A stretch of DNA of 64,000 nucleotides, from positions 20,584,001 to 20,648,000 of the forward strand of contig OZ024755.1 of assembly GCA_964016885.1 (NCBI GenBank), written 5' to 3'. Position 1 is the stretch's first letter. The number at the start of each line of letters is the position of its first letter. Source of the DNA: Eledone cirrhosa. Taxonomy: Eukaryota. Shown in pieces: positions 9,829 to 62,679 of this stretch. The notes below the pieces were generated by a model. The model was given only the letters and a program-made list of their open reading frames with translations, searched no databases and was not told the origin of the DNA. The position numbers were made by a program, and so were the translations under genes.

Positions 9829-12132
9829 ATATGTCACTGCTGTAAGTAATTATATATATATATATACATCCACACATGTATGGAGACACCCAAAAAATGT
9901 ATACACACTTCAACAGCATTCTAATAAATACTGCCTATACAGGTAATCAAAGTAAATATTTTTGCAGGAAACCCTGTGTGTGTGTGTGTATGTGTATATA
10001 TGAAGTTAACAGATTGTTTTTTGTTTTTAAATTGCTAAAATTCCCCTTTCACGTAGTAAATACATAAAGAAATACGAAAGATATATACAACAAAGGAGAG
10101 ACGTATAAAGTTATTGTATATTAGTAACCAACTGACATTTATATAACTAAATATTAACCTTGTTATTATCCGCGGTAATGAATCGAGGTTTTTGGTTTAC
10201 CTCAATTTTACCCGAGTGGGTACTTGGTTGTTCCAGTGCCTCAGACTCGCTATCACCCGCCGTAATGTTACCAGTGTGTTAGCTTGCTTCAAAATGTATT
10301 AGAGGGAGCTCCGGTATTCCTTGTAGTGTGTGACCGACTGACACATTTAGTGTTTGCTTAATATTTTCTTTTGTTTTGATTGTATATTTTCAAATGAAAT
10401 ATTTATGTAATTACTAGAAATATACGTGTGTGTGTTGATTTTTGACAGCTATAGCATTTGTGTTTGTAATTTTAAACTATCTATATTACCAGCATATTAG
10501 TTGCAGAAAAAATGTGAACTTTGCTATTATGTAATTCCATCTACATCGTTTATTTCGATAAAATAAAATCTATTCCTATAAAATATTTAGTACATTTTGA
10601 TACGCATTCTATATGAAATAGATTACATGCAAAAAGAAATTGAGAGTGACCTACCTTGATATTGATCTCTTACGTTTAAAGTCAAATAAATTTAATCAAC
10701 TTAATGTGAACATGTAAACTTAATATAAACATTTTTCTTTCAGCGACGGAGAGCAAATATCTTTACTAAGCCTCTTGATGTAAGTACTGGTATAAACCAT
10801 CCTAAATATAATTTTCTTGTATCAAAGCAATTTCTACAATCAGGATTTAAAAAAAAAAAAAAAATCCTTTCTATAAACGATGTATATTTTAAATTGTCAG
10901 GCGTAAAGAATCGATCGATATGTCAATAATGAAAGTAAACAACACTAATGAATATAATACTTTCATTATTTAATACTCTGGATCTTTAATAAAGACATAA
11001 CACTGAATTTCCGATGGTTTGGTACCTCTTTTTATCCGGATATAATTATAGGTTCACCTTTAAATTTCCCGCGAGCTGTTGACTGATTCATTCATGTGAG
11101 GCTATTATCGCGTAGCAGCATTAGATTTAATTTTAAACATTTGTGTCGTTATATTGTCGTATTTGAGACGTAAGAAGTCTGTTTCCTATTTCGTAATATC
11201 TTTCTTGTAAAATATATAGTTCGGCATGACGGATAATCCGGCACAGATCTGGAACCAAGTGTGTCGGAAAATCGGTGTTGTATTTTGTACTAATGGAATA
11301 GTTTGTTTTTTGTTTTGTTTTGTTTTTTTTTGCTATTTTTTATACGAATATAATAACTGTTTATTAATATCACTTGAATATATACACACAAATAATATAT
11401 ACGGTACTTAATTACATAAATATTTCACATAGAAATATAAAAATCAAAACGAAAGAAAATTTTAAGTCAAAACTATGTCAATCGGTCACACATCACAAGG
11501 GGTGACGGACCTCTCTCTAATACTTTTTAAGGCAAGCCGACACACTCTCAAGGCACTGGAACAACCAAGCACCCTCATGGACACCACTTAATACCTCGGT
11601 AAGGCGAACCGCCAACGATGACAAGACATTCGTTGTCAGTGGCCCAGCTCCCCTCTCATGTCTCGAACGCCACAGGCTATATAATATATATATATACATA
11701 CTTTGCTGATAATACTCTATATTTTATAATTTTATTCCTTTCGGTTACAGATGCAGTGGAGGATATATCCCAAAGGGACTCTCTTCATACTTAAAATACA
11801 ATATATTTCTGTTAACTTCTATCTACCTTATATTTTTATTATTATTCCGCAACCATGTAGACTATTTATTCATGTAATCCATTTAAACGTCCGTATAGAG
11901 CCATGACAGACGGGAAAGTATCTAGTACTTAAGTGAATATAAACATTTTAAATATTTTCTGCAACCCTCTAGTCTATATATTTGTTTATTTTCTATCTAG
12001 TTTATATATGTAATATTTTTCTGCAACCCTCTAGACTATATATGTATGTTTACTTCTATCTAGCTTATATTTCTTATTGTGTTCTGTCTAGTTTATCTCA
12101 GCCACATCTCATACTATTGCACCTTTAAAGAA

Positions 12133-12290
12133 ATGGATCAACTTACTGAACAATTAGCTGAGACTGTTCAAGTAAAATTTGAACCCAATTCAACTGATGC
12201 GGTACATCCCCGTCTTATGCAATATAAATGTAGGAAGAGTATTCTGGATCAAAATGAACGACGTCGAAGGATATTAAACATACAAAAACA
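12133..12290 (+). CDS. SNUPN: SNUPN coding exon 1 (IBB-like region)
   Basis: MDQLTEQLA...HPRLMQYK...ILNIQK; donor GTAAGT at 12291. Confidence 0.9.
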
Positions 12291-15200
12291 GTAAGTAATG
12301 AATTATTTAATTCATAAAAATGCATTAAACTTGATTAAACTTATAAACGTGAGGTTGTGAGTTCGATTCTTGGACCGGGCTTTAATGAGACTATGCATGT
12401 GTAGGCTGGAGATTAAAGTATATTGGTAAGGAACTGTGTCCCAATAAGTTGGGTGGCATTGTTAAGTGACACCATATTTCAGATTCTTCACAATAACTGT
12501 TAAGTAACCATAGTAACACCTCATCACATTCACAAAGATATATATAGACGATGTTTAGGTAGGATTAGTATTTATATCTAAACCTTCAATACCAACCCAC
12601 CTAAAACTGCCTCCAGGTCTATGGAACAAAACCACCCACTTTAAAAGGGGGGGTCATATTTAAACTAAAATCTTCCAACGTATTTTTTGTTATATTATAA
12701 ATAATTTTAGTAAATTTTTCCAAAATGTTAATGAACTCAAATACAGTGTATTGTATTAGAAATATGGTAATGGAAGTGGTTAATGAAGCACTAATTTGGC
12801 AGATTAATCACTTACCTACTTTATGGTAATGAAAGGGTTAATGGAACACTAATTAAGCAGTTTAACCACTTACTAAGTTTATGGTAATAAAAGGATTAAT
12901 GAGGTACGAATTAGGCAACTTAACTACTTAGTTTATGGTAATAGTAAAGACCCCCTTCGGCCATGAATGACCATGAGATTTGCACCTAAAAAGTTCTCTT
13001 CTGAGGCACAAGTCTGGGCAATGTTGTTTGTGGAAAACCAGCAGTTGCCTATGCATACCAGACTCCCTTCTCCATGCCACTGATGTTGTCTCAGGGAAAG
13101 ACAAATGCTGATACAGTTGACACCAGTGACGTCGCAACTCATTTCTAAAGCTGAGTGAACTGGAGCAACGTGAAATAAAGTGTCTTGATCAAGGACACAA
13201 TGCAAAGCCTGGTCTGAGAATCGAACTCACAACCTCCTGACGCTCTAACCACTAAGCCATGTGCCTTCACTTTATAGTAATGAAAGGTTTAACAAAGCAC
13301 TAATTAAGCAGTTTAACCACTTACCTAGTTTAACAAAGCACTAATTAGGCAGTGAAACCACTTAGTTTATTACTAATTATCAAGTTCTGTCACCATTTTT
13401 TTTCTTTTCTATTTTTCAGAAATCGATTTGATTATCTTAAAAATGTTCGGCAACTTGTTGATAATTATTGGGAATCTGCTGAAACAAAAGAGGAGACTGC
13501 ATTTACAGAAGAGTCCATGGAATGTGATGTATTTAAAAAACCAGGAAGATTTTATCAAAATCAGGTTCTTTGCTGTATTTTATTAAGATATTGATTTTTC
13601 TTTCATTGAAATTATCTTCCATCTCATTAAATGTCCCTACCTAAGCCATTTTTGCTGGCATTTTGACTTTAAATCTAGATTTTTATATTAGTTATTATTA
13701 TTGTTGATAAAATAAAGCACCAGTAATGCACTGGGGTAATTTCTGGTCTTGTGCCAAAAGTAGAAACAATTGTTGTTGTTGTTTAGTCCTAGGTCAAATC
13801 TGATTGAGTGGACTTATGTATGATTCAAGATATTCCAGTTGTAATATCTAGAGCTACATAATACAATGTGTCATTGTTTAATGGTATTGATTTTAGGGAA
13901 ATTTAGCTGCTAATTATAGCAGATCAAAGTGTGACATTGAGGCTCTATGGTTGGCAGCAGTACTTTTACAATGTAGTCTCAGAGCAGCAGTACATCTGAT
14001 CAGTTGTAGAAGTGAAACACTTAATTTTAAAAGGATCTATTGAGGTTGAACATTTAAAAAAAGAAATATAAAAAATAAAACAATGTTTTATTTAACTACA
14101 TTGTTTTAGCTTTCTAATTGATACAAAGTTTCTTTTAGATAAGTTTAGACACTACTTTAAATACTACTAATACTTACATGAATGTACACATATTTATTTG
14201 ATTCACTCTTTAAGGGAAACATCTGCTGTGTTTAGACCTGGAGAGGAGTTGGGCTCCACCAGGCTTAAAATACCCAAGAAATGCTATGTCACTACAGTGA
14301 CCCTGTAACTCCATCAGGAGTTATGGAACCAAACAATACTAGCAAAAGCTTTACTTAACCTTTTAGCATTTAAACCAGCTGTATCTGGCCAGAATTCTCT
14401 CACTTTCTGTTAAAACTGGTTGTAACCAGCCACTCGTGCTGATGTTAAGGTATTCTTCTTAAAATAAATATGGAGTAATGACAACTGGTAATAAAAGATA
14501 TTTTGGTTGTTGCTTTACCTTTAAGCTATTGTTTTCCTAGAGAATCTAATAAAATGCATATCAGACTGTTTTCTTTTAGCTAATCGAATTCTAACAAGAA
14601 AAAATGTCTTTTTTGACTTGTAGCTTATGTTGTCTGAATGGTTAGTAGAAGTACCAAGTGACTTTGAACAAGAATGGTCACTAGTGATATGTCCTATGGG
14701 GAAACGCTGTTTGGTTGTTGCTTCTAAAGTAAGTTATGTTTTTCTTTCTCAATTTGCTTTATGATTTCACACTGCTTCTCAGCCTTTCAAAGTGTATAAT
14801 TGATACTATGGACATGTGGCTAGGATGTATAAGGAAAGAATAGCTGGACAGATTTTTACAGCCAAAAACCAACCGGTAGGAGTCCCAGAGGTAGACTCCT
14901 AGCAATCAATTCTAGCTATGCTACTGATTTATCAACATTACTTTATTATTTTCTACTACAGGGAACCACAGCTGTTTATACAAAAAATGGTTATTTAGTG
15001 AATAGATTTCCATCAATGTTTCCTGGTGGTAACAGAGATCAAGGATCTTATCATGAAGGTATGTATTTCATCATCATCATTGTTTAATGTCCACTTTCCC
15101 TGCTAGCAAGGATTTGACAGGTCTACATAGTCCAAGTCAGTACTGAAGCCTGGCTACTTACCTCCCAGATAGACCAAAGGGATCTGTATCTTACTTACGT

Positions 15201-18200
15201 AAATAATTATTTCTAACACTAGCACTAGGTCAGGAATTTGGAGGAAGGGGTAAGTTGATTATATTGACTCCAGTACTTAACTGGTACTTTATTTTATTGC
15301 TGACCCTGTAAGGATGAAAGGCAAAGTTGAGCTTGGCAACATTTGAACACAGAGTGTAGAACTAAATACTGCCAAATATTTTGTCTACACTGTAATGTGA
15401 TCATGTTGGTGACACAACAAAAAGCACCTACTGTAAATATGGTTGGCATTAGGAAGGACATCAAATTATAACAATATACTATTTCACCTCTTTCATCTGG
15501 TACCATACTCCACTGTATATATTTCACCTCTATATCAGTTAGTACCACACTTCATTATATTTTAACCTTACCATACTAACCTTGCTATACTATATCATCT
15601 CTATTTCAGCTGGTACCATACTTGACTGTATATTTAATGAAGTAGAAAATATTTATTACATCCTTGATGTTATGTGTTGGAATGGTCACCCAGTGTATGA
15701 CTCAGAGGTAAGTACCAATCTCATGTATTAGAGAACCAGTAGAGTCATGTTAGTACATTAAATAATATGCCTTGCCATATTTCTTCTTCCTTTTTGCATT
15801 CTGAGTTCAAATCCCAGTATGGCCTACCTAAATAGTATACAATCATTTGTTTTGTTTCACACTACCACCACCTAGCTCTTGGGTGTCTTCAGTGGAGTTT
15901 ACTTACTTTGTTGTGAGTATTTGGGTCAGATCTTTTAACCAACTGACCATGAGCTATTCTGTATCTATAGCGATCCACTGTTATTGCATTTATTTTTTAC
16001 GTTTGGGACTCTCACATTTTCAAATTTTAAACACTCCCAGCACTTCAATAATTCCTAAGGTTTTTTTTATATCAATATTGTATTAATACTGTTATTTTAT
16101 TGTATTCTTTAGACAGATTTTCGCTTTTATTGGTTACATATGAAATTTAATGAAAGCCCAGAATATTTTGCGAAGCACCATAAATCAAAGGTAACTTTAC
16201 TTGCTGTGTATTTCATCTGGATTTGTACTACAGTTTTTATGTTAATGTTAAAATTTAATAAAAGTAGTAAAGCATTTTTATCATAATGTTGAGTTACTGT
16301 ACATACTTGTGTATAATTCACACCTATTTTTATCATAATGGTGCTGTACTGTACATACTTGTGTATAAGACACCTAATTTTGTCATAATTGTGTATGTCA
16401 CACCTATTGTTATACTGGTAAGGTACTATACATACTTGTGTATAAGATACACCTATTTTTTATCATAATGGTGATGTACTGTATATTATCCAATACACCT
16501 TTCCTTCTTTGCCCACATATTCCGAGAGGGTCATGGAGGCAGAGTCCTCAAACACTCTTTCCAGCAGGTCCTGTCAGAAGCAGCCATCTTGCTCAGGGTC
16601 TCCTACTGGTTGGTTTTGATTGTATACATCCTTCCTTTTTTTCTAAAATTAATGTGATTTCAGGGAAACTTGGTTGCTATTTCTAGTAAATTGTATAATC
16701 ATTTATAGTTCCTATTAGTTCGTTGATTGCAAATTATTTCCCTTGATCTTTTATAAACATAATACACATCATACAGCAAGAGCCAAATTACTGAAGACTA
16801 AATCAACTTTGATCCTTAGCTGAAGCTATTCCATTTCCTGTACAATGCTAACACTCTTGGGAAAGCATGAATGTCACATTTCCCTATTTTTTTTTTGTCC
16901 TCAAAGGAAACTATATATATATTATCATCATTATTTAATGTCCACTTTCCACGCTAGCATGGGTTAGACAGGTTGTCCCAGGTGACCATGTCTTACTCAT
17001 ATGGAACTGTTTCTGGCTAGATTTCTACACCTGGATGCCCTCTATATATATATATATATATATATTATTGTATAAAGTGGGAATCTGGACAGTCAAGAAA
17101 TAACTGTTTCTACTTTAGGCACAAGGCCAGCAATTACCCAGTGCATTACTGGTACTTTATTTTATCGACCCCCGTAAGGATGAAAGGCAAAGTCAACCTC
17201 GGCGGGATTTGAACTCAGATCGTAAAGAGACATAACTATGCTGGAAAGCATGGCGTCCGACCCTCTACCGATACTGCCAATCCACCGCCAAGAAATAACA
17301 TTGATAATTCATATTCTGTCTCTAGTACTTCATATACTTGACTCTCATGAAAAATATGGGTAGACTGGACAGTGAAAGGTCAACAAATAATACTGGTACT
17401 GCATTGGGTTAGTTAGTTGTTATATCTCTTTTAAAGTAAATTTTATTTATGAGGTGGCAAAATGACAGAATTACTAGAATGTTGGATAGAAAGCTTTGCA
17501 GTATTTGTCCCAGCTCTCTGCTCTCTCTCTCTTCAAATTCTACCAAGGTAACTTTACCTTTCATCTTTTCGAGGTGAATAAAAAGTACCAATCCAGTACT
17601 GGGGTTGATTCTTCCTCAATATCTCTTTCCCGTCTCAAGATATTTGTGCGTTCGTTTTTGATTATAAATAAGTTTATGAATCACATTGACTGTAACGGAT
17701 TACTGAGCATATTGACATATGTTTAAATTATACTAATACTACAGTATGTATTATGGTATGATCTCAACTCCTGATAGTCATAGGGCTGCTGTATTGACAT
17801 ATGGCGTTTCTTGGACATTGGTGGAACCTATCCATCTCCAGGCAGATTTCTTCCAGGGAAGGATAGACAGAGAGGAATAATCAACCCCAGTACAAGATTA
17901 GTACTTTTTTATCAACCATGAAAGGCAAAGTTGACTTTAGTGGGATTTGAACTCAGAGAGCTGAAACAAATACCACTCTATCTGACATTCTAACGACTAT
18001 ACCAATTCGCCAGCTTCCGTATAAATTATAGTATTACTACAGTCTTTGTATTATATCTCTGGTCCTAGGCACATAACATTACTTGCCTTAGTTTGCTTCA
18101 TTGACAGAACAAATTCACTCTTACTTTTGTGTCGAGATATATATAATATATTGTCTATATATATTTTACAGTATACCTTTGTGCCATTACCAAATTTTCC

Positions 18201-19176
18201 CTGCACCAAAGATGATATTTCAAATGCCATCCATTTGGCAAATTTCACAGTAAGTTTCTTAATTTGCCAAATTTTATTGTTATATCAATGAATTGTTCAA
18301 ATTCTAAAATACATCTATCTAAATATATTCTTTGTTTAACAGTACGTCCACTATTGCTATAACATTTCTTCATTTATCTGTAAATAGGTATCTAAAGAAA
18401 GTTCAGTTTACTATTATATGTAACAGAGACACTCTATAATAAAGTGGTTTGTTAGTGTCCACTACCAAGTTCAGCTTTTACAATTTAACTGTGGTTGTAT
18501 TGATTATTGATAGATTGTTTATTTACTCAATTTGTACTCAGTCCAAGCTATTGATATAAACCTTGAAGTACTCAATACAGTCCAATTTACTTAAGATACT
18601 CAATACAGTCCTCGCTATTGATATAAACCTTGAAGTACTCAATACAGTCCCGTTTCAATTCTATCACAAAAGTTGATTAATGCCTTATTATTTTACCACT
18701 AATCAATCATTGACTATATTTTCCTAAATTCCTACTTTCAGGTGGATGGAGTGTTATTTTACCACAAAAGAACTCATTACACATTTGGATCTACTCCACT
18801 AGTTGTGTGGCTAAAACCATATATGCTTCCTGAAATTTTGAACATTTCAGTTCCTCAAACAATGTTGGCTAACATGCCACCATCATATTTAAATTATTCC
18901 CAACATTTACTAAATGTTCAGAAAGAAAAAGAAAGAGCATCACAACAGAAAACAAAGGCTGCTAACAAACCTCAAGATCCACCTGCGCTTCCTAATAAAA
19001 CTGCACGAAATAGAGGCAAGAAGAAGAAGAATAAAAAAAAGAAAAACCAAATAGCAGATGAAAATGAAATTGAGATAGATGATAATAACCAACAGACACC
19101 CGATTGTGGAATGGAAACTACTCATGTAAAAGATAAAGTGTCATTAACAGAAGTAACAATGAAAGAAGTTGATTAA
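12133..19176 (+). CDS. SNUPN: Snurportin-1 (m3G-cap snRNP nuclear import adaptor); 8 coding exons, 397 aa
   Basis: Exons 12133-12290, 13420-13564, 14624-14728, 14962-15058, 15610-15707, 16113-16190, 18172-18249 and 18742-19176 are all GT-AG with compatible phases (1194 nt). The translation has the IBB-like N-terminus [24 protein letters not shown], then [51 protein letters not shown] and [27 protein letters not shown]. Confidence 0.95.
12762..13370. repeat. Minisatellite of about 59 bp interrupted by a SINE (12946-13270)
   Basis: TTTATGGTAATGAAAGGGTTAAT..CACTAATTAAGCAGTTTAACCACTTAC units lie on both sides of the SINE. Confidence 0.75.
13420..13564 (+). CDS. SNUPN: SNUPN coding exon 2
   Basis: TTTTTCAG acceptor; [12 protein letters not shown]...PGRFYQNQ; GT donor. 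Confidence 0.9.
14624..14728 (+). CDS. SNUPN: SNUPN coding exon 3
   Basis: [35 protein letters not shown]; AG / GTAAGT. Confidence 0.92.
14962..15058 (+). CDS. SNUPN: SNUPN coding exon 4
   Basis: [24 protein letters not shown]...; CAG / GTATGT. Confidence 0.92.
15610..15707 (+). CDS. SNUPN: SNUPN coding exon 5
   Basis: [32 protein letters not shown]; CAG / GTAAGT. Confidence 0.92.
16113..16190 (+). CDS. SNUPN: SNUPN coding exon 6
   Basis: [26 protein letters not shown]; TAG / GTAACT. Confidence 0.9.
16275..16500. repeat. Intronic minisatellite, about 52-bp unit
   Basis: TTTTTATCATAATGGTG..TACTGTACATACTTGTGTATAAG..CACCTA is repeated. Confidence 0.7.
18172..18249 (+). CDS. SNUPN: SNUPN coding exon 7
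   Basis: [26 protein letters not shown]; CAG / GTAAGT. Confidence 0.88.
18742..19176 (+). CDS. SNUPN: SNUPN coding exon 8 (terminal)
   Basis: [26 protein letters not shown] then a Lys-rich and acidic tail; TAA stop followed at once by AATAAA. Confidence 0.92.
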   Translation: MDGVLFYHKRTHYTFGSTPLVVWLKPYMLPEILNISVPQTMLANMPPSYLNYSQHLLNVQKEKERASQQKTKAANKPQDPPALPNKTARNRGKKKKNKKKKNQIADENEIEIDDNNQQTPDCGMETTHVKDKVSLTEVTMKEVD

Positions 19177-28666: not shown

Positions 28667-30324
28667 CGTTTCGTTACGTTTTCGACCACAGCCGAAATTC
28701 GATCTCGATGAAATTATATATATATATATATATATACTAGTGTTAATAGGTTATCTGTAAGCTAGCTCATTTGAGATGGGCATTGAGCTTTGAATCTGGC
28801 GTTGAATAAGAGTTGATTATTGATTAGTAAAAAGTTCTTTTCAATCTATTTCAATTCCCTTCGCTTCAACTTGTCATTTTACATCATCTTATCTTGAAGT
28901 TTTTTAATCATTTTCGCAAAAATGTTAAATCTTTTTCAAACGTTTGCAATTAATATCCCAAGTCCCTTTAACACCGCCATCCCACCCACTTCCAGAAGTT
29001 GCTCACCAAGTATTACATTAACACACCCACTCACATCAATACACTTTGAACATACAGTTCATACCCTCACAGTACAATATAAGGCCCTCCCACCGTATGC
29101 CCGCTCATATTTCTGATAGACGCAAACATTAGTGAGATTAATTAATTGTCATGTTTATGTGAAGGATTCACTGTGGAATGTAATGAAACATATTTACTAG
29201 TTCCAAACACAAGAAATATAATTTAGACTTGTTCCTGTTTTTGTTTATTTTACCAACTTTATTTACAAGCTGAATCTCGGACAGTAACTTGTGACGAAAA
29301 CTGTTTCGTTCATCAAGATCAATGGATCGTTTCTATCGGTCAACGATAATCTATATATCTAATTAATCCTACTATGTCAACATTTTCAAAAGACACATCA
29401 TGAGCAATAAATCTTATTGGATTCGATCGGTCTTTTCGATGTGTACATAACAACGACTATTGGTTGAGATGACTGATTGTGTAATGCGATCGATTGAAGA
29501 CAACTGATGTTGATTGGTTTGTAGGTTATGAATGATCGATACACATTTAAACAACATAACAGTTTGATATTGATAAGAAATTTTGGTAAATTAACTGAAT
29601 AAGATTTAGCAATATCTCAAATTAAATAAAAATCTTTATTCGAAGTTTTGTCTACAAAATAGAAAAAAGTCTGAATTTCTGTCGTTCATTAGTAATGAAG
29701 AATGAAGTAAAGTTTAATAGAAGCCAGTTAAAATGGTATCAATCTTGATACAAGAGAGGAGTCTTGAGAATTATATAAACTTCTATATTGTTAAATATAT
29801 CTGCTGGAGAATTTAGGATTGCCAGGAATATTTAGTCTTAAATATCATCTACAGTTTATCATTGAATATATGAGTCTCAACCCCAAGGACTCAAAAAGAC
29901 CATTACGCATTGGGGAAGAAAGCACAGCGAGCCAAAAGAGAAATGAGGGAAGAATTTAGGATTGTCAGGAATATTTATTCGTAGAAAAAATCATTTATAA
30001 CTTTCATCAATATATATATATATATATATTTATACCGAACCACTTCACTACATGGCCACCGGCATATCCTAAAGAGTGCATAAATGCACCAATTATTGCG
30101 TAAGAATCTGACGAAGTCACATGAATAACCATTTAACAGAAATATATATAATGCAATGAACAATTATGGTGATTTAATCCCGACTTTACTCTTATTTGAT
30201 AAATGAATACTCCGTCACCTACCTGGGATAAACTACTGATATGTAGTGCTTTGGTTAGCAAGGACCTGCTTATTATCAGGAAGTTACTACGTAACAACTA
30301 AGATAAGCAACACTCTTGTGCAAT

Positions 30325-30379
<55 letters not shown>

Positions 30380-30594
30380 CAATATATTAATTGTTTCTAT
30401 TTTAGGCACAAGGCCAGCAATTACCCAGTACATTACTGGTACTTTATTTTATCGACCCCGTAAGGATGAAAGGCAAAGTTAACCTCGGCGGGATTTGAAC
30501 TCAGATCATAAAGGAACGTAACTCTATGCTTCAAAGCATGGTGTCCAACTCTCTACCGATTAATAAATGGAAACTATATTTATAAAACCATAAT

Positions 30595-30659
30595 TATTTT
30601 ATTATATATATTTCAAGGGCAACCAAGACAATCTTGGTGTGCTTTCATCAGATAAAATA
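30595..30659 (-). ncRNA. Type I hammerhead ribozyme, intact core, palindromic stem III (Penelope-like pLTR type)
   Basis: Minus strand reads TATTTTAT-CTGATGA-aagcacACCAAGAttgTCTTGGTtgccctt-GAAA-tatata-TA-ATAAAATA. Stem I is 8 bp and perfect, stem II is long, stem III is the palindrome ATATATAT. Confidence 0.8.
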
Positions 30660-30738
30660 CAAAATTTGTTTTATAGTGACATAACCATGGACAACAACCT
30701 TGACGGTTGAAAATTCGCTGGATTGAATATAACTTCTG

Positions 30739-30789
<51 letters not shown>

Positions 30790-32643: not shown

Positions 32644-32989
32644 ATATATATATATATATAATCATTTATGTTACGTTGCTTACCAAGGGTAGAACCGGTG
32701 GTTTGGGTTGGTAAACGATGATGCAACAAATTAATTAAAACAACGTTATGTAAATCCTCCATCGTAGCTGTGGTACCCAGTAGTTGGTGCAGGAACGGAG
32801 TAAAGTATTCATTAAAACAACAACAGGTCTGATTGGAAAATTTACTTTAGAATTTTAAAATGCGTCCTGTTAAAATCTTTCCCCACCCCACCCAACACCC
32901 CCACCCAAATGGAGATTGAACAACCCGATCTCCAGGAAACGAAAAGGTAAGTGCATCTTTTCGTCCTTTTCGTCAACTCTTCTTCACCA

Positions 32990-36297: not shown

Positions 36298-36466
36298 GTG
36301 ATGAGCATTTTAAGCTGGTCAATTTTTACAACGAAACAACCCTGTCATCTATTTCCAGATTACATAAAACCACTGTGAATTTATTAATCAACTACCTTTT
36401 GTTATATATTTTTAATACCAATAAAGTCAGTCCAAGCTGCAAAACTCTTACGTTTCACTGCTAATC

Positions 36467-36504
<38 letters not shown>

Positions 36505-36668
36505 TAAGCAGTGAAACGTAAGAGTTTTGCAGCTTGGTCTGTCTTTATTGGTATTAAAAATATATAGCAAAAGGTAGTTGATTAATAAATTCACAGTGGT
36601 TTTATGTAATCTGGAAATAGATGACAGGGTTGTTTCGTAAAAATTGACCAGCTTAAAATGCTCATCAC
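36298..36668. repeat. Inverted repeat of about 165 bp around a (TA)n spacer
   Basis: 36298-36462 is the reverse complement of 36507-36668 apart from 3 substitutions and one 3-nt indel. Confidence 0.95.
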
Positions 36669-42024: not shown

Positions 42025-43320
42025 ATAATTGTTTCTACTTTTGGCACAAGGCCAGCAATTACCCAGTACATTACTGGTACTTTATTTTATCGACCCCGTA
42101 AGGATGAAAGGCAAAGTTAACCTCGGCGGGATTTGAACTCAGAATGGCAAGGGCCGTAACTCTATGCTGAAAAGCATGGCGTCCGACCCTCTACCAATAC
42201 GGCCAATCCACTGCCCTAATCTGATAATAGTAATAATGATAATAATAATGGTTTCTGATGTAGGCACAAGGCCAACAATGTTTTGAGAGGGGAATTGATT
42301 AAATCAACCCCAGTGCATTACTGGTATTCTATTTTATCGACCCCGTAAGGATGGAAGGCAAAGCTAACCTTGGCAGGATTTGAACACAGAAAGTAAAGGG
42401 CCGTAAGTCTATGCGTCAAAGCATGGCATCCGACCCTCTACCGATACTGCCAATCCACAGCCCTCATAAAAATATTTATAAAGATTTCTGATTTAGGCAC
42501 AAAGCTAGCAATTTATAGGAAGGTGAAAGTCAATATTTTCCCCCAGTTTTTGACTGGTATTTTATTTTATCAACCCTGGAAGAATCAAGGACATGGACAC
42601 AAAGTTAGCAATTTATAGGTAAGGGAAAGTCGATTACATTAACCCCAGTACTTGACTGGTACTTTATTTTATCAACCCTGGAAGAATCAAAGACATGAAC
42701 ACAAAGTTTGCAATTTATAGGTAAGGGAAAGTCGATTACATTAACCCCAGTACTTGACTGGTACTTTATTTTACTGAGCCCCCAAGGTTGACATCAACTA
42801 GTTTTAAAATCTGAGCATAAAGGGACATAATCAAATATTTCAAGGCACATTGTGTTGTGCAATGCTCTACCGATTCTGTCAATCAACCAGCTCGATGGAG
42901 ATTTACAATATTGATTTCTAACATTTGTAGAAGGCCTCAAAATTAGGGAAAGGAAACAGCTAATTATGTTGACTGGTATTTTATACTATTGACCCCAGGA
43001 GGGTAGAAAATAAACTTGACCTTAGCATAATTGAACTCAGAACATGGAAGGCCATAACTAAATACAAGCAAAGCATTTAGTCCACCGCTCTACTGATTTT
43101 GTCAACCCACCACCCTGATGGAGATTTACAATATTGATAAAACATTTAGTGATTATTCTTTCTAAGTTTGGCACAAGGCCAGCAATTTATTTTATTGACT
43201 TTGGAAGGACGGAAAGCAATGTTGACCTCCCTGGGATTTGAACTCAGAATGTGGAAGGTCATTACTGAATAATGCAAAGCGCTTTGTCCAACTCTCCACC
43301 AATACTACCAATCCAACACT
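42025..43320 (-). mobile_element. Cluster of tandem and degenerate SINE copies
   Basis: Repeated CCCAGT..ACTGGTACTTTATTTTATC..GGATTTGAACTCAGAA units, including a tandem duplication of about 104 bp at about 42495-42760. Confidence 0.75.
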
Positions 43321-45144
43321 CTACACAAGGCATATGAGGGCTAGGTGGTAGAGTTAATTCAGGTGTAAGATTAAGTATACTTGAATATAAGAAACCCCGT
43401 TCCTATTTCATGTCTGAGAAATGGGCAAAAATCCAAACCCCGTTCATAAGTTAAGGCAATTAATCAACACATTATGTTTAGTTGGTGAATATAAACCAAC
43501 GATTTTTTGGTCACATATTCCTCTGCTTATATTCGAGGATATTCAGTATATCACATAAACAGGTGACAAAGGGATTTGAACTCAGAATATAAAGAGTCAG
43601 AACAACTACACCAACACACTACCTGTCCAACACTCTAATGATTTCACTACTTTACCACCTTAGACTGTTATTTTAATTATTGATCCCAGAAAGATCAAAG
43701 GTAGAGTTGACCATGGCAGGATTTGAATTCAAAACTCAAGGGAACATAACAATTAGAGCAAGGCATTTTATCGAAGGTTCAAATGTTTCTGCTAATTTAC
43801 TACCTTGATATGTGTCTTAGCAAAATAAATACTTAGCAAAATAAATTTTTACTTCGAATGTAGCTGTTGTCTGAGCAAGCAGACATATGTTTCAAGACAA
43901 TCTCATCATATTTCCAGACTTGAGATTTCTTTGGTACAAACAAGGCCACATATTTATAGAAAAGGGAAAAGATGGACTGTGATGCTCTTGTTTTTATCAA
44001 AAGCATCTGTGATGTAAGACACTTAGATAGGTTTAACCGGGAATTGAAATGGGGTCATCAGTTTTACTCATTCCAAATAATAATAATAGCTTCTGATTTA
44101 GGCACAAGGCCAACAATTTTGGGGAAGGGTCAAGTCAATTAAATCAACCTCAGTGCATTACTGGTACTTTATTTAATTGACCCTGTAAAAATGAAAAGCA
44201 AAGCTAACCTCGGTGGGATTTGAACTCAGAATGTAAAGAGATGTAACTCTATGCTGCAAAGCATGTTGTCCAACGCTCTACCGATACTGCCAATACACTG
44301 CCCTTCATTTCTGACTTATGTACAAGATCAACAATTTGTGGGGAAGGGAAAAGTCAATTAAATCTATCCCAGTGCATTACTGGTACTTTGTTTTATCAAC
44401 CCCGAAAGGATGAAAGGTAAAGTATACCTAGGCAGGATTTCAACTTAATTAAATACTGCAAAGCATTTTGTCTGATGCTCTACAGAATAATAATTGTTTC
44501 TACTTTTGGCACAAGGCCAGCAATTACCCAGTGTATTACTGGTACTTTATTTTATCGACCCCGTAAGGATGAAAGGCAAAGTTAACCTCAGCGGGATTTG
44601 AACTCAGAATGGCAAGGGCCGTAACTCTATGCATAGCGTCCGACCCTCTACCGATACTGCCAATCCACGAATAATGATTATTAATAATGGTTTCTAAAAT
44701 AGGTGCATGGCTAAAATAATTTGCAGCATGGGGAGAGGGAGGGAATAGTCCATTATATTGCCCCCCCCCCCCCCCCATACTTCATTTTAACTACTTCAGA
44801 AAGTTGGCCTCGGCGGGATTTAAACTTAGGACACAAACAACTGGAACAAACACCACAAGGCATTTTGTCCAATGTTCTAATTATTATGATAAATGATAAT
44901 TATAATAATTATAATGTTAATAATGATTTCTGATATAGGCACAAGCCCAACAATTTTAGGGGAGGGGAAAGTCGATTAAATTGACCCCAGTGCATTACTG
45001 GTACCTTATTAATCGACCCCATAAGGATGAAAGGCAAAGTTAACCTCGGCGAGATTTGAACTCACAACGTAAAGGGCCGTAACTCTACGCTGAAAAACGT
45101 TGTGCGACGGCCAATCGATATGGCCAATCCACCGCCCTTTAATG

Positions 45145-45747: not shown

Positions 45748-45790
45748 CAAGGAAAAATGGTTAAGCCTTCATTATGTTTATTGGTTGGTG

Positions 45791-45887
45791 ACACACATTT
45801 CGCTATTGATCAGCTCAAGGTTTGATCTGACCCGACTCTGGAATCAAAAGCTCGTCAGATCTCTGTTGTAGTAATGACAATGTCTGT
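45791..45887 (-). ncRNA. Putative hammerhead ribozyme (possible type III), sense to the SLC4 downstream region
   Basis: Minus strand reads ACAGACAT-T-GTC..GAT-CTGACGA-GCTtTTGAT..ATCAAtAGC-GAAA-TGTGTGT. The core and 9-bp stem II are clear; stems I and III are weaker. Confidence 0.5.
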
Positions 45888-45904
45888 ATATATATATATA
45901 TATA

Positions 45905-45964
45905 TATACCTGATGATATCACCGGATTCATACTGAACCCGGTCATTGAAATGATCATAGTATA
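45905..45964 (+). ncRNA. Type I hammerhead ribozyme, intact core, palindromic stem III
   Basis: TATAC-CTGATGA-tatcACCGGaTTCAtacTGAAcCCGGTcatt-GAAA-tgatca-TA-GTATA; stem III palindrome ATGATCAT; starts at the end of a (TA)n tract. Confidence 0.75.
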
Positions 45965-46695: not shown

Positions 46696-46834
46696 TTACA
46701 TTTTGCTTTCGTTTTCTGGGTCATCCTCTTCTTGAATATAAAATCCAACTACTTTCGGCTCATGAGGTTTTCCTTCCACACAATCATTTTTATGTCTGTC
46801 TTTGTCTTTTGATTTTCTTTTCCGTCGAGATACC
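46696..46834 (-). CDS. SLC4: SLC4 terminal exon
   Basis: TTACAG acceptor; [18 protein letters not shown]...[13 protein letters not shown]. Confidence 0.75.
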
Positions 46835-46914: not shown

Positions 46915-48664
46915 AACCCATACTAAAGTCGACATGTAAAAGACACAGCAAAAAGCACCCAGCCCACACTGTAAAGCAGACGTGTAAAAGACCCGGCAAA
47001 AAGCACCCAGCCCACACTGTAAAGTGGACGTGTAAAAGACCTGGCAGAAAGCACCCAGCCCACACTGTAAAGTGGACGTGGAAAAGACATGGCAAAAATC
47101 ACCCAGCCCACACTGTAAAGTGGACGTGTAAAAGACATGGCAAAAATCACCCAGCACACACCGTCAATGTGGTTGGAGTTAAGAAGGGCATCCAGCCATA
47201 GAAAACCAGCTAGAAACACCCCTATATGAGCAAGACACGGTCACTCGACACAACTTCCTCTAAATAGGACCTGTCTAACCCATGCAAGCGTGGAAGATAG
47301 AAGTTAATCGATGATGATAGAGAGAGAGAGAAAATTATAAAGAAATACTCTGTAATATTATGTTGGTATCACAAAAACACCCAATGATGCATGACATACC
47401 CTGACATAGTAGATGGTTAAGATTCAGTCATTGAATTAATATTAATAACTCTGAAAAACCTTTTTCTGTTGAGTGTTTCCAATCTATTGTAAAACTCATT
47501 CTTTGATGTATTCATTGAACCTTGTTTAACTTTTAAATATATATATATATATACACATACATATACACACACACATATATATACATACATAGATCATAGG
47601 GTCTCATGTGACAGACAGACGAAAAGGCTATACAGATCATTTTTTTTTTCATCATCATTTCATTTTATGTCCGCTTTTCCCTGCTTGCAAGGGTGGGACA
47701 GGAACTGATTCTGGCTTGATTTCTACAGCTGGATGCCCTTCCTAACACCAACCTCATTTACAGTGAGTGCTGGGTACTTTTTTGCCGTGGCACCTGCACG
47801 ACCACTTTGCAATGGAATGATAGGGATCCCAGGCCCTATCATCTCATTTCTTCAGCTGAGTAAACTGGAGCAATGTGAAATAAAGTGCCTTGCTCAAGGA
47901 AACAACACATCGCCCGGTCTAAGAATTGAACACACAACCTTTCGATTGCAAGGCCAATGCTCTAACCACTAAGCCATGTGCCTCCATATATATATATACA
48001 CATACATATACACACACACACATACATATACATACATAGATCATAGGGTCTCATGTGACAGACAGACGAAAAGGCGATACAGGTATTTAATATAAAATAT
48101 ATACATATTAACTGGCTTGCCATATAATTGTTTCTACGTTAGGCACAAGGCCAGCAATTACTCAGTGCATTACTGGTACTTTATTTTATCGACCCCGTAA
48201 GGATGAAAGGCAAAGTCAACCTCGGCGGGATTTGAACTCAGATCGTAAAGGGACGTAACTATGCTGGAAAGCATGGCGTCCGACCCTCTACCGATACTGC
48301 CAATCTACCGCCCTTGCTTGCCATATAATATTGTGTAATACTTGCCTTGTGTTCTCTGAATGTATTGGTATATTTTCTTTCTCATTCCGCACCTGCAGCC
48401 AAATAGCAGTTTTATTTACTTCCTCAGTGATATTCACTCTGTCTAAATCATTATTGGACATGTTATGAATAGCAAATTTTTCGGATGGCTTCTCATGCTG
48501 ACTTCGAACTTCCGTTAATTTATCACTTTCGTCACGACTCAACAATTGCACACCCTGGAAAATAGAAGTTTCTCGTTAATTATTTGTAAAGGTGGTTGGT
48601 GTCAGGAAGACCACCCAGCCAGAAAAACCCTGCCAAAAACATGACCATGATGATAATGATGATA

Positions 48665-52400: not shown

Positions 52401-55400
52401 GCCAGAAAAACCTGGGATGATTTGATAAATTCCAACCTTACACACTTACACCTCTCTAAGACAATGTCACTGGACCGAGATCTTTGGCGCTACACAGTAA
52501 TACAGAAGACCCGCCTTGCCTAAGTACAGAGCGAAACCTACAGTCAGTAGGCACCTTTTAATCAAATATACACCCCCGTCCCACTACCCCCAGCTCCCCC
52601 ACCCCCACCCCCATCAACACCACCCCTTTCTCTGTAAAGCTATGTTGGTACCACAACATCCAGTTTTAAATAAATGAGGTCCTGTAGGTGTCACGACAAA
52701 AAACACAGTCCACGCTGTAATGTGGTTGTGTAGGTAACACGGTAAAAACCTCCCAGTCCACACTGTAAACGTGGTTGGTGTTAGGAAGGGCATTCAGCCA
52801 TAAAAAACCTGCCAGACAGTCCTATACGAGCAAGACGACCAATCTTGTCTCAAGTGGGACAATTCCCATCTAAACCCATGCTAGCGTGGAAGATAGATGT
52901 TAAACGATGATGATGAAAACAATCTATAGAATCACTTCCAAATGATATTTTACCTCACGCCAAGAAATGCAGGTCTTTCACCTGGAGCTGTACATTCTGA
53001 TTCTCGTTTCAAACTCATAATATGTGCCAAAGCTGACACAGTAGCTGCCACATACCAAGGTAGTCCAAGTATAGAACAGATAGCTATACAGATGGCTACT
53101 ATAAATAAATCCAGATGATATCCATTTCCTTTCTGAAATGAGAGAAAAATCAGCTAAAAATTAATGGGTTTGTTTTGACAAAACTTTAAAATTTGGTAAA
53201 TATTAATGGGTGTATATTAACAAAACTTTAAAATTACGTAAAAATTAATTGGTTTATATTGTGTCATAACTATAAGATTAGGTAAATATTAAAGAGTTTA
53301 TATTGTGACAAAACTTTAAAATTAGGTAAATATTAAAGGGTTTATATTCTGACAAAACTTTAAAATTAGTTGAAAATTAATGGTTTATTTGCTGACAAAA
53401 TCTTAAAATTTGATAAATATTAATGGGTTAATATTTTGACAAAACTTTAAAATTCAAGCAAATGAGAATATTATAAGTTGCTATTAAATATCTATAATAT
53501 AATAATTTAGTTTATAATTCCTACGACTTTCTAATCAATATGTACTAAATATCGGTTCAAGGTGTTAGAATGCTAGGGCACTGGAATTGTAAATTCTATT
53601 TAATCTACCAAATAACTTTTCAATCATCATCATCATCATTTGGGCCCCCAAATATTTCTCCACACTATTTATTACTCTAAAGTGGCCCCTCTCATTATAT
53701 CTGATTTAATTTTCTATCACTGAGCCCTCAAACTTTTCTTCCCACCACATATTACTTGATAGAGACCCTCCACTGTATCTGACCTAACTTTCTACCACTG
53801 AGCCCTCAAACATTGCTCCACACCAAATATTACTTCAAAATCATGTCAGTAATTCCTTACCTTTAATTTATTCTCTTTTCTGTTGACAATCACAGCTGTA
53901 ATCTGTTGATCCATGAAAATAAGGATGACTGCCAACAAAGCTGGTATACAACATGCTAAAATCATCCACCAAGGATTTTTTTCACTAATAGGGTTAATGA
54001 ACCAGCCTCTGTCAGATCGCGTGGGCTGTTGATTAAAGAAAACAAACATATAATATGTAAAAATATAAATATAAAAGGCATATAAAAAATCAATATTATT
54101 TATATTTTCATGATTTCAGAATTTGAATTGTGGCCATGATGGGGCACCACTTTTAAGAGCTACTTTGCATAGTACATTTAGTTTTATTGATCTCTATTTA
54201 TCAAATGACTGGAGAGGAGAAAGGTTCTGCCAGGTCTAAAAAATGCCCTAAGAAATGCTATATGTCAATATGGTGTCCCTATGACTCCCTCGGGAGTTAT
54301 GGGTCCATACCATACCATTTATCAAATGGCTGTCTCAGATAAAATGTGATTGCAATATCTATTCTCACTCTTTAGATTCTGAGTTCAAATCCCACTGAGG
54401 TCAACTTAGATTTTCATCCTTCTGGAGTCGATAAAACTAAGTACCAGTCATATACTGTGGTTGATTTAATCAACGTGGCCCTTCCACAAATTTGCTGACT
54501 TTGTGCCAGAATTAGAAACCAACACACAGAGTTCCCCCCAAAATTGACATCATTTTGTAGTCTAACAATTCACCCAATTTTTCATTCAAATGATCTCGAA
54601 GTTCAACAAAATGTGTAAAAACTAACCAAGTTTAATCTATATATATAAAAACGAAAATTTCTATCTGTCTGTCTGTATGCAGGCAATGCATTTCCCCATT
54701 TTCTATCCGTAGGTTATTTAGCTCCCGGAACATGTCAACATCTAGTTTAAATTTTGCTCTTCTCTAAAATAACCGAGTTCTGGGGCTATTTAAAGACTTC
54801 ATGTTGATGAGAGAGAGGGGTCTCTTTATTTACAGTAGTAAAAGGTGTGCCTGGCAACGACAGGCTCTTTTGCTAGTGTTAAATGTTTTCTTTTTTTGTT
54901 ACAGGTTGAAGAATGACGTTCACTACATATTAAAAGGTATTTTGTGTGTTAGAATATGCTTGAACACAGTCAAACAATGATGCCAATGTTTGGCAGACAC
55001 CCTATATAATGAAATAATTTCCTGGTTCTCAATAGAACTAAATGGTAACAGCAACAATCCAAACACTTACTTTGAACTTTTTGGGTACCTCAAGCTTTGG
55101 GGTAGGAATACCAAGAAGCATATCAATGGCGACCATTATTATGATAGAAATGAGAACTGAGAAATCACTGAGATTTTGACGAACCTGGAAATATAAAGAT
55201 TTGAAAACAGTTATAGAAATATTAGAGAAAGTAAGGCAAGGGAAATAACTACAGTTATTCAGTACATCACCACATAACAGGAATACCTGAAATATTTCAG
55301 AGTTTGATTGATTTCTCTTTAAATTAACATAATATTATAGAATAGAGTACAGAGATAATTAATATATTTTTGTGATTCCCTCTACTATACACTACACACA

Positions 55401-55742
55401 CATATACATCACCCACATACTCTCTCTTTCTATCAAACACGTAGCCTAAAGAAACGGAATATACGAGGATGTACCCCTTCCATACACATGCACACATGTG
55501 TGTATCATGACTCGTGCACTGTTCATTTTACTGATGTTTGTGCATTGCCCTATGTACTGTACATGCACTTTTTTGATGAGTTGTGGTGCACCTGGGCACT
55601 GTACACAATATTTCATTATTGTTATTGTTATTATATCATGACTCATACACTGTTTATTTTCCTGACATTTGTACATTATTCTATGTACTATACATGCACC
55701 TTTGATGAGTTGTAGTGCACCTGAGCACTGTACACACTAATT

Positions 55743-55781
<39 letters not shown>

Positions 55782-57675: not shown

Positions 57676-60600
57676 TATATTAAACGAAGAAGTATACATA
57701 TCTCTACACGAGCATAGATACAAGTATAGGTACATACATACAGAGTGTCTAACTTATACTGAGTTTGGCTGTATGAAAGAGTTAATAAAATTAACAGATT
57801 CAGAGCCAAATAAAATCAAAGTCTCCTGATGATTTGGGATTTCTCACGATACTCTACTCGGAGTATCATTATTTTCCCACTGAAACTGTAGTAGGGACAT
57901 TAAAGTGAGTAAGTAAAGATTTTTTTCTTAATTTGTTTGCTTTTCCCATATTTGATTTTATATATAGATATACATATATTATATAAGATCTCAACACATG
58001 CATGCTACCTAAGGTTTCAAACATATATCCTATGCTTGCACATATGGTTATTTCAAGTAAAATGTATCAAAATAGTGGATACATACCCATGTTGGGAAAA
58101 AACGGCTGGTCTTAAAACCCTGCAGGCTATTTGCAATGGTAAATGTTCCAATGAAGAGCAGAATTGATAATAGAAAGGCATCTGGTACAAAGGCACAATC
58201 ACCAGTGATTTTACCAGCAATGTTCGTACAATTCAATTTAGTAAATGTATTATCAATAGGAAATATATCCATTATTTCATCAGTGGACAGAGAGAAATTA
58301 TTTTCTGTGTTGTTTATTATAGGATGTACTTCACACATACATTCAGTACTGTTTATTGGTACTTGTGTATGAAGTGCATAGTCCGAATTAATACCAATTA
58401 TCTTCTTAAAGGCTTCAGCTATAAAAATAATGGCGATCAAGCAAGCAAAACTTTCTTCAGTGAAACGAGTTATGTATCTAACTAAAGCACTCAGATCAAA
58501 AGCCACCACCAAAAGTAGAATAAGGGTTGTCCATAATCCAATCCAGCATCTTAATGGCAGGAAATCCAGTTTTCTTTCTCTGTAAATAAAATGTAGAAAT
58601 GTATAGTTCTAGGGGGGTAACAACAACAACACCTCTCAATATTAAACATAAGTGTATTGCTTCTATCATTTTTGGGAGGTACAGATGTTCATATTTTTCT
58701 GACAAAAATGACTAATTTTCACAGCAAAAATCCTACTCACCCTCTCCAAGATTGGAGACTTCAATGCCATTAATGTTCCCAGAGAGAGAAAGAGATAGAG
58801 AGTTCCAGAGGGAGGAGTTCCAGAGCAAGAAGGATTGGGAATGGTGGTTAGTATGAGGTATAATGGGTTGAACACAACTTGGTGAGATGAAAAGAGATGA
58901 ATGGGTCAGCAGTGTCTGAGTGGAAGTGGCATGAAGCCACAACAAGCTCTGAAGAGCAGAGAGCATTGTAGTAGCTGTAGAAAGGATAGTAGGAGATGAC
59001 AGTATGTCTGTATACCACACTGAGACTAGATAATGTCTTACAGTGATTAACTGTCTAATAACAGATATTCAAACTGGAGCCATGACAATACGCACCCAGT
59101 CCATACTGTAAAGTGATCATATAGGTGACATGACAAAAAGCACCCAGTACACACTGTAAATGTGGTTGGTGTTAGGAAGGGCATCCAGCCATAGAAACCA
59201 AACCAAAATCAGTTCAGTATGAGCAAAACATGGTCCCTCAACCCAGCTTCTCTCACAATGGAACAGCTCATCTAACCCATGATAGCATGGAAAATGGACA
59301 TTAAATGATGATGATGATAATGATGATGATGATGAACAACCCTAGGAATCTCTCCTAATCTAATGTCATGAATGCTGCTATTTTACCTGGCTAAACCACT
59401 AAAAATATTTTGAAAATATAGTCAGAATGTATTAGAATTTATGAAAGCTTACTTGCAGAAAGAATAAAGTATCATTTCCAGAACTAACATAGGACCAGTA
59501 CTCCCTAAAATATTCAGTGGCTGCCCTGCAAATAATGCGTATGCGACTCCAGTAATGGCAGCTGTCAAAATACACTCCATTGTTCCCTAAAAATGAAAAG
59601 AGATTGTTAATAGAGGCTGTATGAAAAAAAGCTATATTTCAAAAGGTTATATTTTTAAACAAATAACTATATAATCAAGCGATAACTTGTTCAATACATG
59701 TCTGAATATAAAGTTTGATTTTTTTTTATAAAGTTATTTATATATTGACCATTTGTAAAAATTATAAATAAAATCAAATGAGTCTTTTTGATAAACCGTG
59801 TATTGCTTTTTAATCATTTTGATACCAAATTCCCTAGAACTAGCCCTGGTCCTATCATACAAAACTGGTTATTTTAAAGTGGTAAAAAACTCTTAGGAGA
59901 GCTGGACATCAGAAGGTTTTCAGAGAAGACCCTCCACTCTCATGCCAGTGTTTCAGCCCTTAACTTTTTATATTCATCTAAAAATTTTCCTTCATAATTT
60001 TATGTAAGAACCTTATTTTAGGTACAAGGGCACTAAGTTTTAGGGGTAATGAAATGGAAACTGTGATTCTTTATGCTTTTCTTGCTGTTCTTTCAAAATA
60101 ATAATGAAAAAATTTTGATTACTTGCAAAATTAATTGGAAATCATCCAACTATCTTTTATTAGTAGTAACAAGACAAAATGTCCCACAGTATTTAGTTGT
60201 GTACCTTTATATTCTGAATTCAAATCTCACTGAGATTGACTTTGAATTTCATTCTTCTAAGGTGGTTGATAAAATATAGTACCAGTTAAATACTAGGGTT
60301 GTTTTCATCAACAACTCATCCCTCAAATTGAAGGTTTTGTGCCAATACTATAGTAGTAAACTGTTCTATTTTGTGGTACTTTATTACAGATAGAAAGGCT
60401 GGACCATTTGAAAGTTAAGTGTCCATAGATAAAAGGCAATACAGATGATAAACAAATTAGATCTGCCTCTCAGCTGAGTGTCCATTAACATATTTCTTAG
60501 CAATCCATACTTTCTATTTTTAGATATAGACAACTATAATAACAGAAATGTGTTTTACAGATCAATACATACACCAGCAGGCCTGGCCTGTACACAGATT

Positions 60601-62644
60601 GTTTCTAAATACTTCAGCATTAATTCATTACAATGGATACATGTTAACATCAGCTAACTCGATGAAAGAATCTTTTTAGATCCAATTTTCTGATTGTCAA
60701 TTGAATAAAATGCATCATTAAAGCGGTAAACATGTAAAAAAAAAATTTGATCAACCGTTTTGATACTAACCCGGCCAAAACCAGCCCTGGATCTATGAAA
60801 GAAAACCACCGATTTCATACGATTCCTATAAATATTTATATCTTCCAACATGAACCATACAAGAACCATATTTTAAGTTATATTAGGAACAAAATAATTA
60901 ATCATTTGAGTAAATCTGTCAAAATTCTGCATTAATTAATTGAAAGAGAGTATATGTCATTATAAATATGGTAAGAAAAGGGTTAAACATGAACTTACCA
61001 TATACTGATCAGTGGCTTGACCCAAAAGTCCACCAAAAGTTACATTCGGAGTTAATGTAGCAAGGTAGAGAAATATTATACTGGCAATACATTGCAGATG
61101 AAGAGCATCTTTAAAGTCACTTGCATACCATTTAACCTTCCGTTTTACGTCTGCTACAAGACCACCAAAAAGTCTACAGAATAAATTACATTTTTGTGGA
61201 ATTATAGAAAACTTGAAAAAAAAAAAAAAAATCAACATGAAAACTACATAATATTATTATAAGTACTTCACCTTTCATTCTTATGGGGTCGATAAAATAA
61301 AGTACCAGTAACACACTGGCGTCAATTTGATAAAAAAAGAAGAAAAGGGTTGGGCACCATGCTTTGCATCATAGAGTTTCGCCACTTTACGGTCTGAGTT
61401 CAAATCCCGCTGAGGTTAACTTTGCCTTTCATCCTTACAGAGTCAATAAAATAAAGTACCAGTAATGCACTGGGATAATTGTTGGCCTTATCCAAAAAAT
61501 AGAAACAATTATTTATAAGTTCTTCATATTATATTGTAGAGACATTGTTATATGAGGGTTGGCTGAAATGTTCATAGGCTGACTATGAATCTGACTTGGA
61601 GCTAAACTACTACATCAACAACGATAACAACATCACATACTTATATATATATACACGTGAGTGAGTGTGTATAAATGTACATGTATGTATAAAACAATAC
61701 ATTGGTTTAGAAGCCAGAACGTCAAAGAGGGTGTAGTGAGTTGAAATTTCAAAATTTATGATGTTTAGTTTTGTGTTTCAGAGTTCATATCTAAATGGAG
61801 TTTAACCCTTTAGCATTTAAACCGGCCATATACAGCCAGAATTCTCTCACCTCTTTCTGTTCAAACCAGCTGTAACCAGTCACTGATACTGATGTTAAGG
61901 TATTGTTCTCAAAATAAATAATATCAAAATCTCATAGATTCAATATTATGTGAGATAAAGCCTTTACTGTGAAAATATAATAGTAAATATAGTGTAATGT
62001 AAATGCTAAAGGATTAATGTTAGTTTTTATGGTTTCAGTATCAACATTAGTTATTGTTTGAATAATTCACTAAGTGACAATTGATATCTGATTATTTGTT
62101 GTCTCATTAATTGTTATACTGAATAATCTACTTATTTAATGGTCAGTAAATATTTACATTTTACTAGCAATTATTTCCTTCAATCTTTCTCTAAATAATA
62201 AGAAAATAAATAATCCATAGTAATAATTGACTACCCATGGAAAAATGGGCATAAAATGGTGAGGATTTATATATATATATATATATATATATTTAAGAGT
62301 TAAACAAGATTCAATGAATACATCAAGGAAAGAGTTTTACAATATATTGGAAGCACTCTACAGAAAATATTTTCCAGAGTTATTAATATTAATTCAAAAT
62401 ATTAACAAAGTAGGTATTCTTTTGATCAATTATATTTTATTATACATATTTCAGAGGCACTGAATTAAGTTCAACAGATAAAATAAAATGATACATGACA
62501 TACCCTGATTAAATCTTAACCATCTGCCACATATATTTCATGACTCGTACACTGTTCACTTTCCTGACATTTGTACATTATTCTATGTACTATACATACA
62601 CCTTTGATGAGTTGTAGTGCACCTGAGCACTGTACACAATAATT

Positions 62645-62679
<35 letters not shown>

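Follow-up and report, generated by a model that had tools for sequence, protein, structure and literature searches.

Penelope-like elements of metazoans carry type I hammerhead ribozymes in their terminal repeats (PMC4209133). These hammerheads are mostly single genomic copies that vary highly within a genome and have a long helix II, and they typically show a G10.1-C11.1 pair and an extra base after A9. In some lineages helix III is a small palindrome. Pairs of motifs occur on opposite strands 100-700 bases apart, and in the assays reported monomers did not cut and dimers cut weakly (PMC4209133). Penelope-like elements also leave inverted truncated copies and tails of 30-40 bases and have an insertion bias towards microsatellites (PMC8557442). 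In cephalopods, 235 Rfam hammerhead_1 loci are on record for the giant squid (PMC6962438), and recently active Penelope-like families have been described in Octopus vulgaris, in a paper whose main text does not mention ribozymes (PMC13282606).

The motif described here, copy B, lies in a window of 64 kb, by which we mean the whole stretch of DNA analysed. Like the hammerheads of metazoan Penelope terminal repeats (pseudo-LTRs), it is of type I and combines a long helix II with a short, palindromic helix III, and its surroundings resemble the Penelope-type pattern of scattered single copies, several unrelated families and an opposite-strand pair within 100-700 bases. Because the window matches this published picture, copy B is read as a solitary end piece: it is probably the remnant of a Penelope-like terminal repeat, or of a non-coding derivative of one. 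It differs from Penelope-type hammerheads in its closing pair A10.1-U11.1 (A30644-U30615 in place of G10.1-C11.1) with no extra base after A9, in a stem I of 8+8 bp against 4-5 bp, and in that no adjoining element ORF was found. The giant squid loci are likewise type I motifs in a cephalopod; copy B, unlike them, matches no Rfam hammerhead model.

Architecture and predicted folding of copy B

Base-by-base indexing of the motif gave the following features.

30595..30659, minus strand: type I hammerhead motif (copy B), 65 bases
30652..30659, minus strand: stem I, 5' strand, pairing with 30602-30595 (8/8 Watson-Crick, all A-U)
30595..30602, minus strand: stem I, 3' strand
30645..30651, minus strand: core CUGAUGA (C3 to A9)
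30615..30644, minus strand: stem II, with an A10.1-U11.1 closing pair, a weak lower part and a firm 7-bp upper helix
30611..30614, minus strand: core GAAA (G12 to A15.1)
30605..30610, minus strand: short helix III, palindrome UAUAUA
30604 and 30603, minus strand: U16.1 and A17, the last bases 5' of the predicted cut
30581..30675, minus strand: span of an outer 8-bp helix (30675-30668 with 30588-30581) that extends stem I beyond an internal loop

The perfect 8-bp stem I and intact core claimed in the first-pass annotation are both borne out, all eight pairs being Watson-Crick and CUGAUGA and GAAA both present. On re-indexing the AUA site also falls where it had been placed, at U16.1 and A17, so that the cut is predicted between 30603 and 30602 and the 5' cleavage product would end in UAUAUAUA. 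AUA is found in natural hammerheads, but as a site that is slower after transcription (PMC1636495). The defining features of type I, namely a CUGANGA and GAAA core, an NUH at the cut, and helices I and II round the core with the ends in helix I, are all found in copy B. The upper helix of stem II (30638-30632 with 30628-30622, closed by a UUG loop) has predicted pair probabilities of 0.76-1.0, and the lower part of the stem stays below 0.1. The outer helix, absent from the earlier description, has a pair probability of 0.17-0.85 that varies with the stretch folded.

Fold prediction does not favour the active structure in the monomer. The predicted best monomer fold pairs 30661-30653 with 30615-30607, which lays the 5' strand of stem I on the GAAA core; it is preferred to the hammerhead fold by 1.6-2.7 kcal/mol, and stem I forms with a probability of only 0.03-0.18. 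For the earlier suggestion that the TA palindrome supplies a dimerisation helix, the general principle stands, as a palindromic short helix III is a published route to cleavage by dimers (PMC4209133). The emphasis on TA does not, since other helix III palindromes occur in the window (UGAUCA, CUGUAG, UAUGUA and UGUGUG) and the intermolecular helix III of copy B is predicted to be weak (-3.2 kcal/mol, compared with -7.2 in the 45910 copy). Partners for such a dimer are also wanting in the window: no intact same-strand member of the family was found there, the nearest same-strand relative, altered in its core, lies 31.8 kb away, and the nearby motif at 30108 sits on the opposite strand. Given the predicted misfold, the weak helix III, the missing intact same-strand partner and the slower AUA site, copy B alone would be likely to cut poorly or not at all. 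The earlier description of copy B as the best preserved motif holds for stem I only, since copy B departs from most aligned contigs at 30640 and 30593 and its monomer is predicted to misfold. A rod-like circular fold of the cassette at 30562-30741 (180 bases) was considered and rejected, as this stretch folds no better than its shuffles (z -0.89).

Other motifs, repeat family and genomic setting

Three complete and three decayed motifs were found in the 64-kb window, about one complete motif per 21 kb in a stretch that had been picked for having hammerhead motifs. Besides copy B they are the following.

30093..30170, plus strand: copy A, exact core (30108), same palindrome as copy B, facing it, decayed
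45858, minus strand: copy F, exact core, G10.1-C11.1, GUC site, stem I lost
45905..45964, plus strand: copy C, complete motif (core 45910) of a different sequence family, beginning at (TA)11
57821..57898, plus strand: copy D, complete motif (57826) of a different family, long stem II; in an SLC4 intron, antisense
62433..62485, minus strand: copy E, relative of copy B; identical 8-bp stem I, core with a single change, at A6; sense orientation within an SLC4 intron

Copy E is the clearest relative of copy B: the alignment of the two beats 300/300 shuffles and scores above the 99.5th percentile of random segments, and the two also share flanking sequence. Copies A and B stand on opposite strands with their cores 543 bases apart. 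Their kinship is borderline (4/300 shuffles reach the alignment score), and copy A has decayed, with six extra bases between stem I and the core and a poorly paired stem II. Copies C, D and F are unrelated to copy B in sequence and have palindromes other than TA. Copies C (plus) and F (minus) stand head-to-head at 45790-45964, about 50 bases apart around the (TA)11 tract. Copy F shares its strand with SLC4 and follows the stop codon of that gene by about 0.84 kb; it may therefore lie in the 3' untranslated region.

All six motifs lie 0-148 bases from a tract of (TA)7 or longer, under a limit of 150 bases that was chosen afterwards. The same closeness was found for 10.6% of random non-TA spots and for 4/21, 0/6 and 4/10 clusters of three other repeats (8/37 together). 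Related sequence lacking the ribozyme was also found to end at such tracts. The stretch 32666-32857 (minus) has a match of about 60% to the 190-base tail behind copy C, without an upstream ribozyme, and ends at (TA)n. In addition, a relative of the copy E unit lies at 47383-47536 (plus), where an internal gap of 108 bases takes out the ribozyme and an inverted piece of 22 bases stands in front; the part at 47431-47536 terminates at (TA)n. Two similar stretches at 57490-57545 and 57681-57722 (plus) directly follow (TA)n, and the former looks like a decayed hammerhead, with one core change, a 7-bp hairpin, a CAUAUG palindrome and UA. At 36440-36530, about 30 identical bases flank a split (TA)n tract in inverted orientation.

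The unit to which copy B belongs and its immediate flanks are as follows.

30563..30675, minus strand: many-copy repeat unit of about 113 bases, comprising the ribozyme motif and a 3' tail of about 32 bases past stem I
30676..30741, minus strand: 5' leader from the outer helix to the microsatellite, partly common to copy E and some contigs
30743..30786, no strand: (TA)22 tract, 5' of the cassette
30381..30562, minus strand: SINE-like repeat joined to the tail, with 30 BLAST matches in the window

Copy B is one copy of a repeat: variants across the motif are carried by dozens to more than 100 separate contigs of run X1, the sequencing run that best represents this stretch. Four contig sets were aligned to 30400-30741 at 80% likeness; in run X1, with contigs counted up to 128, variants were carried by 124 contigs at 30593, 112 at 30640, 95 at 30639, 80 at 30644 and 73 at 30599. 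The 13 variants listed within 30590-30675 all spare the core and helix III, a count that covers the listed variants only (of 62 variants in all, 22 lie outside the list). Several changes bear on pairing. Those in stem I (30599 and 30600) turn U-A into U-G and keep the pair, and those at 30632 (57% of depth) and 30628 (54%), which are unphased, would jointly replace an A-U pair of stem II by G-C. Changes at 30633, present in 40% and 24% of depth, would disrupt a pair of stem II, with no partner change listed, and position 10.1 is G in 18% of depth. At 30640, 94% of depth has a letter other than that of the window, one able to pair with C30619, so copy B has drifted in the lower part of stem II.

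The cassette had been thought to run to the (TA)n at about 30741, but the common element seems to end near 30675. A contig from a second species (organism D) aligns with 30574-30675, where 8 of 98 letters differ and 4 gaps occur, and continues unlike the window beyond 30675, which points to a 5' edge of the unit where the outer helix begins. Furthermore, the summed depth of run X1 drops about 55-fold near 30675, although one contig of the host species extends to 30708. These sums amount to 2-3 million at 30568-30603, 0.1-1.3 million at 30604-30675, 4,500-8,200 at 30676-30723 and 19 at 30724-30735; they are not copy numbers, and we draw no copy count from them. Runs X4 (organism B), X5 and X7 have little or no cover on most of 30568-30741 and cover the adjoining repeat heavily, a pattern that is not evidence of absence. 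A search of the copy B locus for tandem or direct repeats of the unit found none. Other AT-rich stretches matched the tail in BLAST (16903, 53456-53517, 34310, 19981 and others) and were dropped, as they score like random segments of the window.

On the 3' side, the true end of copy B is masked by the adjoining repeat at 30381..30562, which we take to be of the SINE-like class. This repeat lacks here the first 16 or so bases that are present in five other copies in the window, and is itself followed by (TA)n. A tandem run of pieces of the same repeat, each of about 102 bases, lies at 42498-43750.

The site, described earlier as lying where no gene is annotated, is intergenic as far as tested. 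Exons of Snurportin-1 (12064-19176, plus) end near 19176, and those of an SLC4 bicarbonate transporter (minus; closest match named from Octopus vulgaris) run from 63522 to an end near 46699. The two genes converge, and copy B lies between them on the SLC4 strand, 16 kb past the SLC4 stop. No match to a reverse transcriptase or a GIY-YIG endonuclease was found in 147 of the 194 stop-to-stop frames of at least 65 amino acids in the window; the 47 frames omitted are mostly derived from microsatellites or repeats, and short exons or decayed ORFs could escape such a search. The window also holds a whole 14-kDa phosphohistidine phosphatase of the Ocnus family (4529-4903, minus; 125 amino acids, coding part intronless), 98% identical to a protein named from Argonauta hians, which points to an argonaut, or an octopod closely related to one, as the host. 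A near-perfect palindrome of 100 bases at 57234-57333 has a 94% match to its own reverse complement. A repeat of about 113 bases beside (AAT)n occurs at 55505-55744, where it is in tandem, and at 62534-62646, upstream of copy E.

Origin of the motif

A chance match in AT-rich, microsatellite-rich DNA has been largely refuted, and we give it hardly any credence. The bare core pattern is indeed common and its number not significant (9 matches against 4.25 expected, with 6/100 shuffles reaching 9). Rfam gives no gathering match in the window and no hammerhead there even at E up to 10, and free folding reaches a z of only -1.9. Against this, the full descriptor, which joins the core, a palindromic hexamer, UH and a stem I of at least 5 bp, finds three complete motifs in the 64-kb window against 0/400 block-wise dinucleotide shuffles; it was fixed after motif B had been seen and follows the published layout. 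The exact core with a palindromic hexamer alone gives five motifs in the window and at most two in 300 shuffles. Chance matches proper look different. In viral collections, the core with the same palindrome was accompanied by a stem I of only 0-2 bp in 27/27 loci, and in metagenome collections by one of 2-5 bp in 18/18 loci (the pattern itself forced 2 bp); with no stem I longer than 5 bp, these loci were rejected as relatives and regarded as chance. None of the 45 thus has the 8-bp stem I that copy E shares with copy B, and the exact-family pattern had no match in the metagenomes.

Among the remaining origins, it is unlikely, while still worth serious thought, that copy B is the solo monomer of a non-LTR retrozyme whose family stands elsewhere in head-to-tail arrays and is transcribed, cut as a dimer and circularised, with copy B reinserted. 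This account overlaps with the reading of copy B as a Penelope remnant, because retrozymes have been proposed to derive from Penelope terminal repeats. Copy B resembles animal non-LTR retrozymes such as HHR_Amex1 and the mussel families in being non-coding and low in GC and in its type I fold, in which the palindromic helix III is weak and, by prediction, dimer-dependent; as in axolotl HHR_Amex1, this helix has 1 bp (PMC7229834). A further helix lengthens stem I, dispersed monomers are known in retrozyme families (bioRxiv 10.64898/2026.07.22.740005), and the cassette from (TA)n to the SINE-like repeat measures 180 bases, inside the 150-450 range of retrozymes. Unlike retrozymes, copy B is not in tandem, no head-to-tail repeats of 150-450 bases being found at its locus, its cassette is not highly self-paired (z -0.89), and the six motifs of the window belong mostly to unrelated families where retrozymes form few uniform ones. 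Very little weight is given to a small non-coding mobile element whose cut 3' end of four UA repeats would pair with nicked (TA)n and prime reverse transcription, and equally little to the corollary that the TA palindrome would serve both dimer formation and targeting. The predicted 5' product does end in UAUAUAUA, all six motifs are near (TA)n, and endonuclease-less Penelope elements use telomere-complementary stretches beside the hammerhead (PMC8557442). Such priming, however, would lose the sequence 3' of the cut, which the copies retain; the flanks of 48 TA tracts, inspected by eye, showed no half-motif running into the tract; and copies C, D and F lie near (TA)n without a TA palindrome. 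Moreover, in the only element so far studied in vitro, mutating the ribozyme left insertion unaffected and reverse transcription began internally (PMC11167929). Highly improbable, too, is an active ribozyme recruited by the host to trim a read-through or long 3' transcript of the upstream SLC4 gene. Copy B has an intact core and is on the SLC4 strand, but it lies 16 kb past the stop codon and has many sister copies, most of which differ from it in stem II, and a misfold of its monomer is predicted to be favoured by 1.6-2.7 kcal/mol; the other motifs of the window occur on either strand relative to the gene.

The reading of copy B as a solitary remnant of a Penelope-like terminal repeat, or of a non-coding derivative, thus seems to us the probable one, and its link to a Penelope ORF is one that we infer. 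In the parent element, the palindromic helix III strands of two hammerheads within the same tandem transcript would form a single helix, probably aided by the protein of the element, and cleavage would follow AUA. Short end pieces would have been copied by the reverse transcriptase and GIY-YIG endonuclease of the parent into sites that are AT-rich or consist of (TA)n, and would now be decaying in place. A possible model for such activity is the Poseidon element PAc of Anolis, whose hammerhead cut only with the protein of the element; the ORF of PAc starts at stem II (PMC11167929), whereas no ORF was found after copy B.

Density and meaning for cephalopod repeats

Among the papers listed by searches of the open literature, none pointed to the family of copy B in argonauts or octopuses; the supplement alignments of PMC4209133 and file S1 of PMC8557442 could include cephalopod examples. 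We put forward as a tentative and rather doubtful proposal, resting on one window chosen for such motifs, that the host genome is among the most hammerhead-dense of animal genomes and harbours an undescribed, heavily amplified ribozyme mini-element of about 113 bases that has spread as one unit, carries no ORF and favours (TA)n. The axolotl has about one motif per 220 kb (126,247 motifs, PMC7229834; 28.21 Gb, bioRxiv 10.64898/2026.07.22.740005), counted with descriptors that differ from those used on the window.

The importance of the finding is modest, and what is known of hammerhead chemistry and Penelope biology is unchanged by it. With it, octopod families join the Penelope-type hammerheads in a form missed by Rfam, and this form therefore offers a handle for classifying short unnamed repeats of cephalopods. 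If the density of the window held genome-wide, there would be tens of thousands of motifs in introns and near genes, as with copy E in sense orientation in an SLC4 intron, and this would be a good genome in which to test whether dimer-dependent ribozymes ever cut host transcripts.
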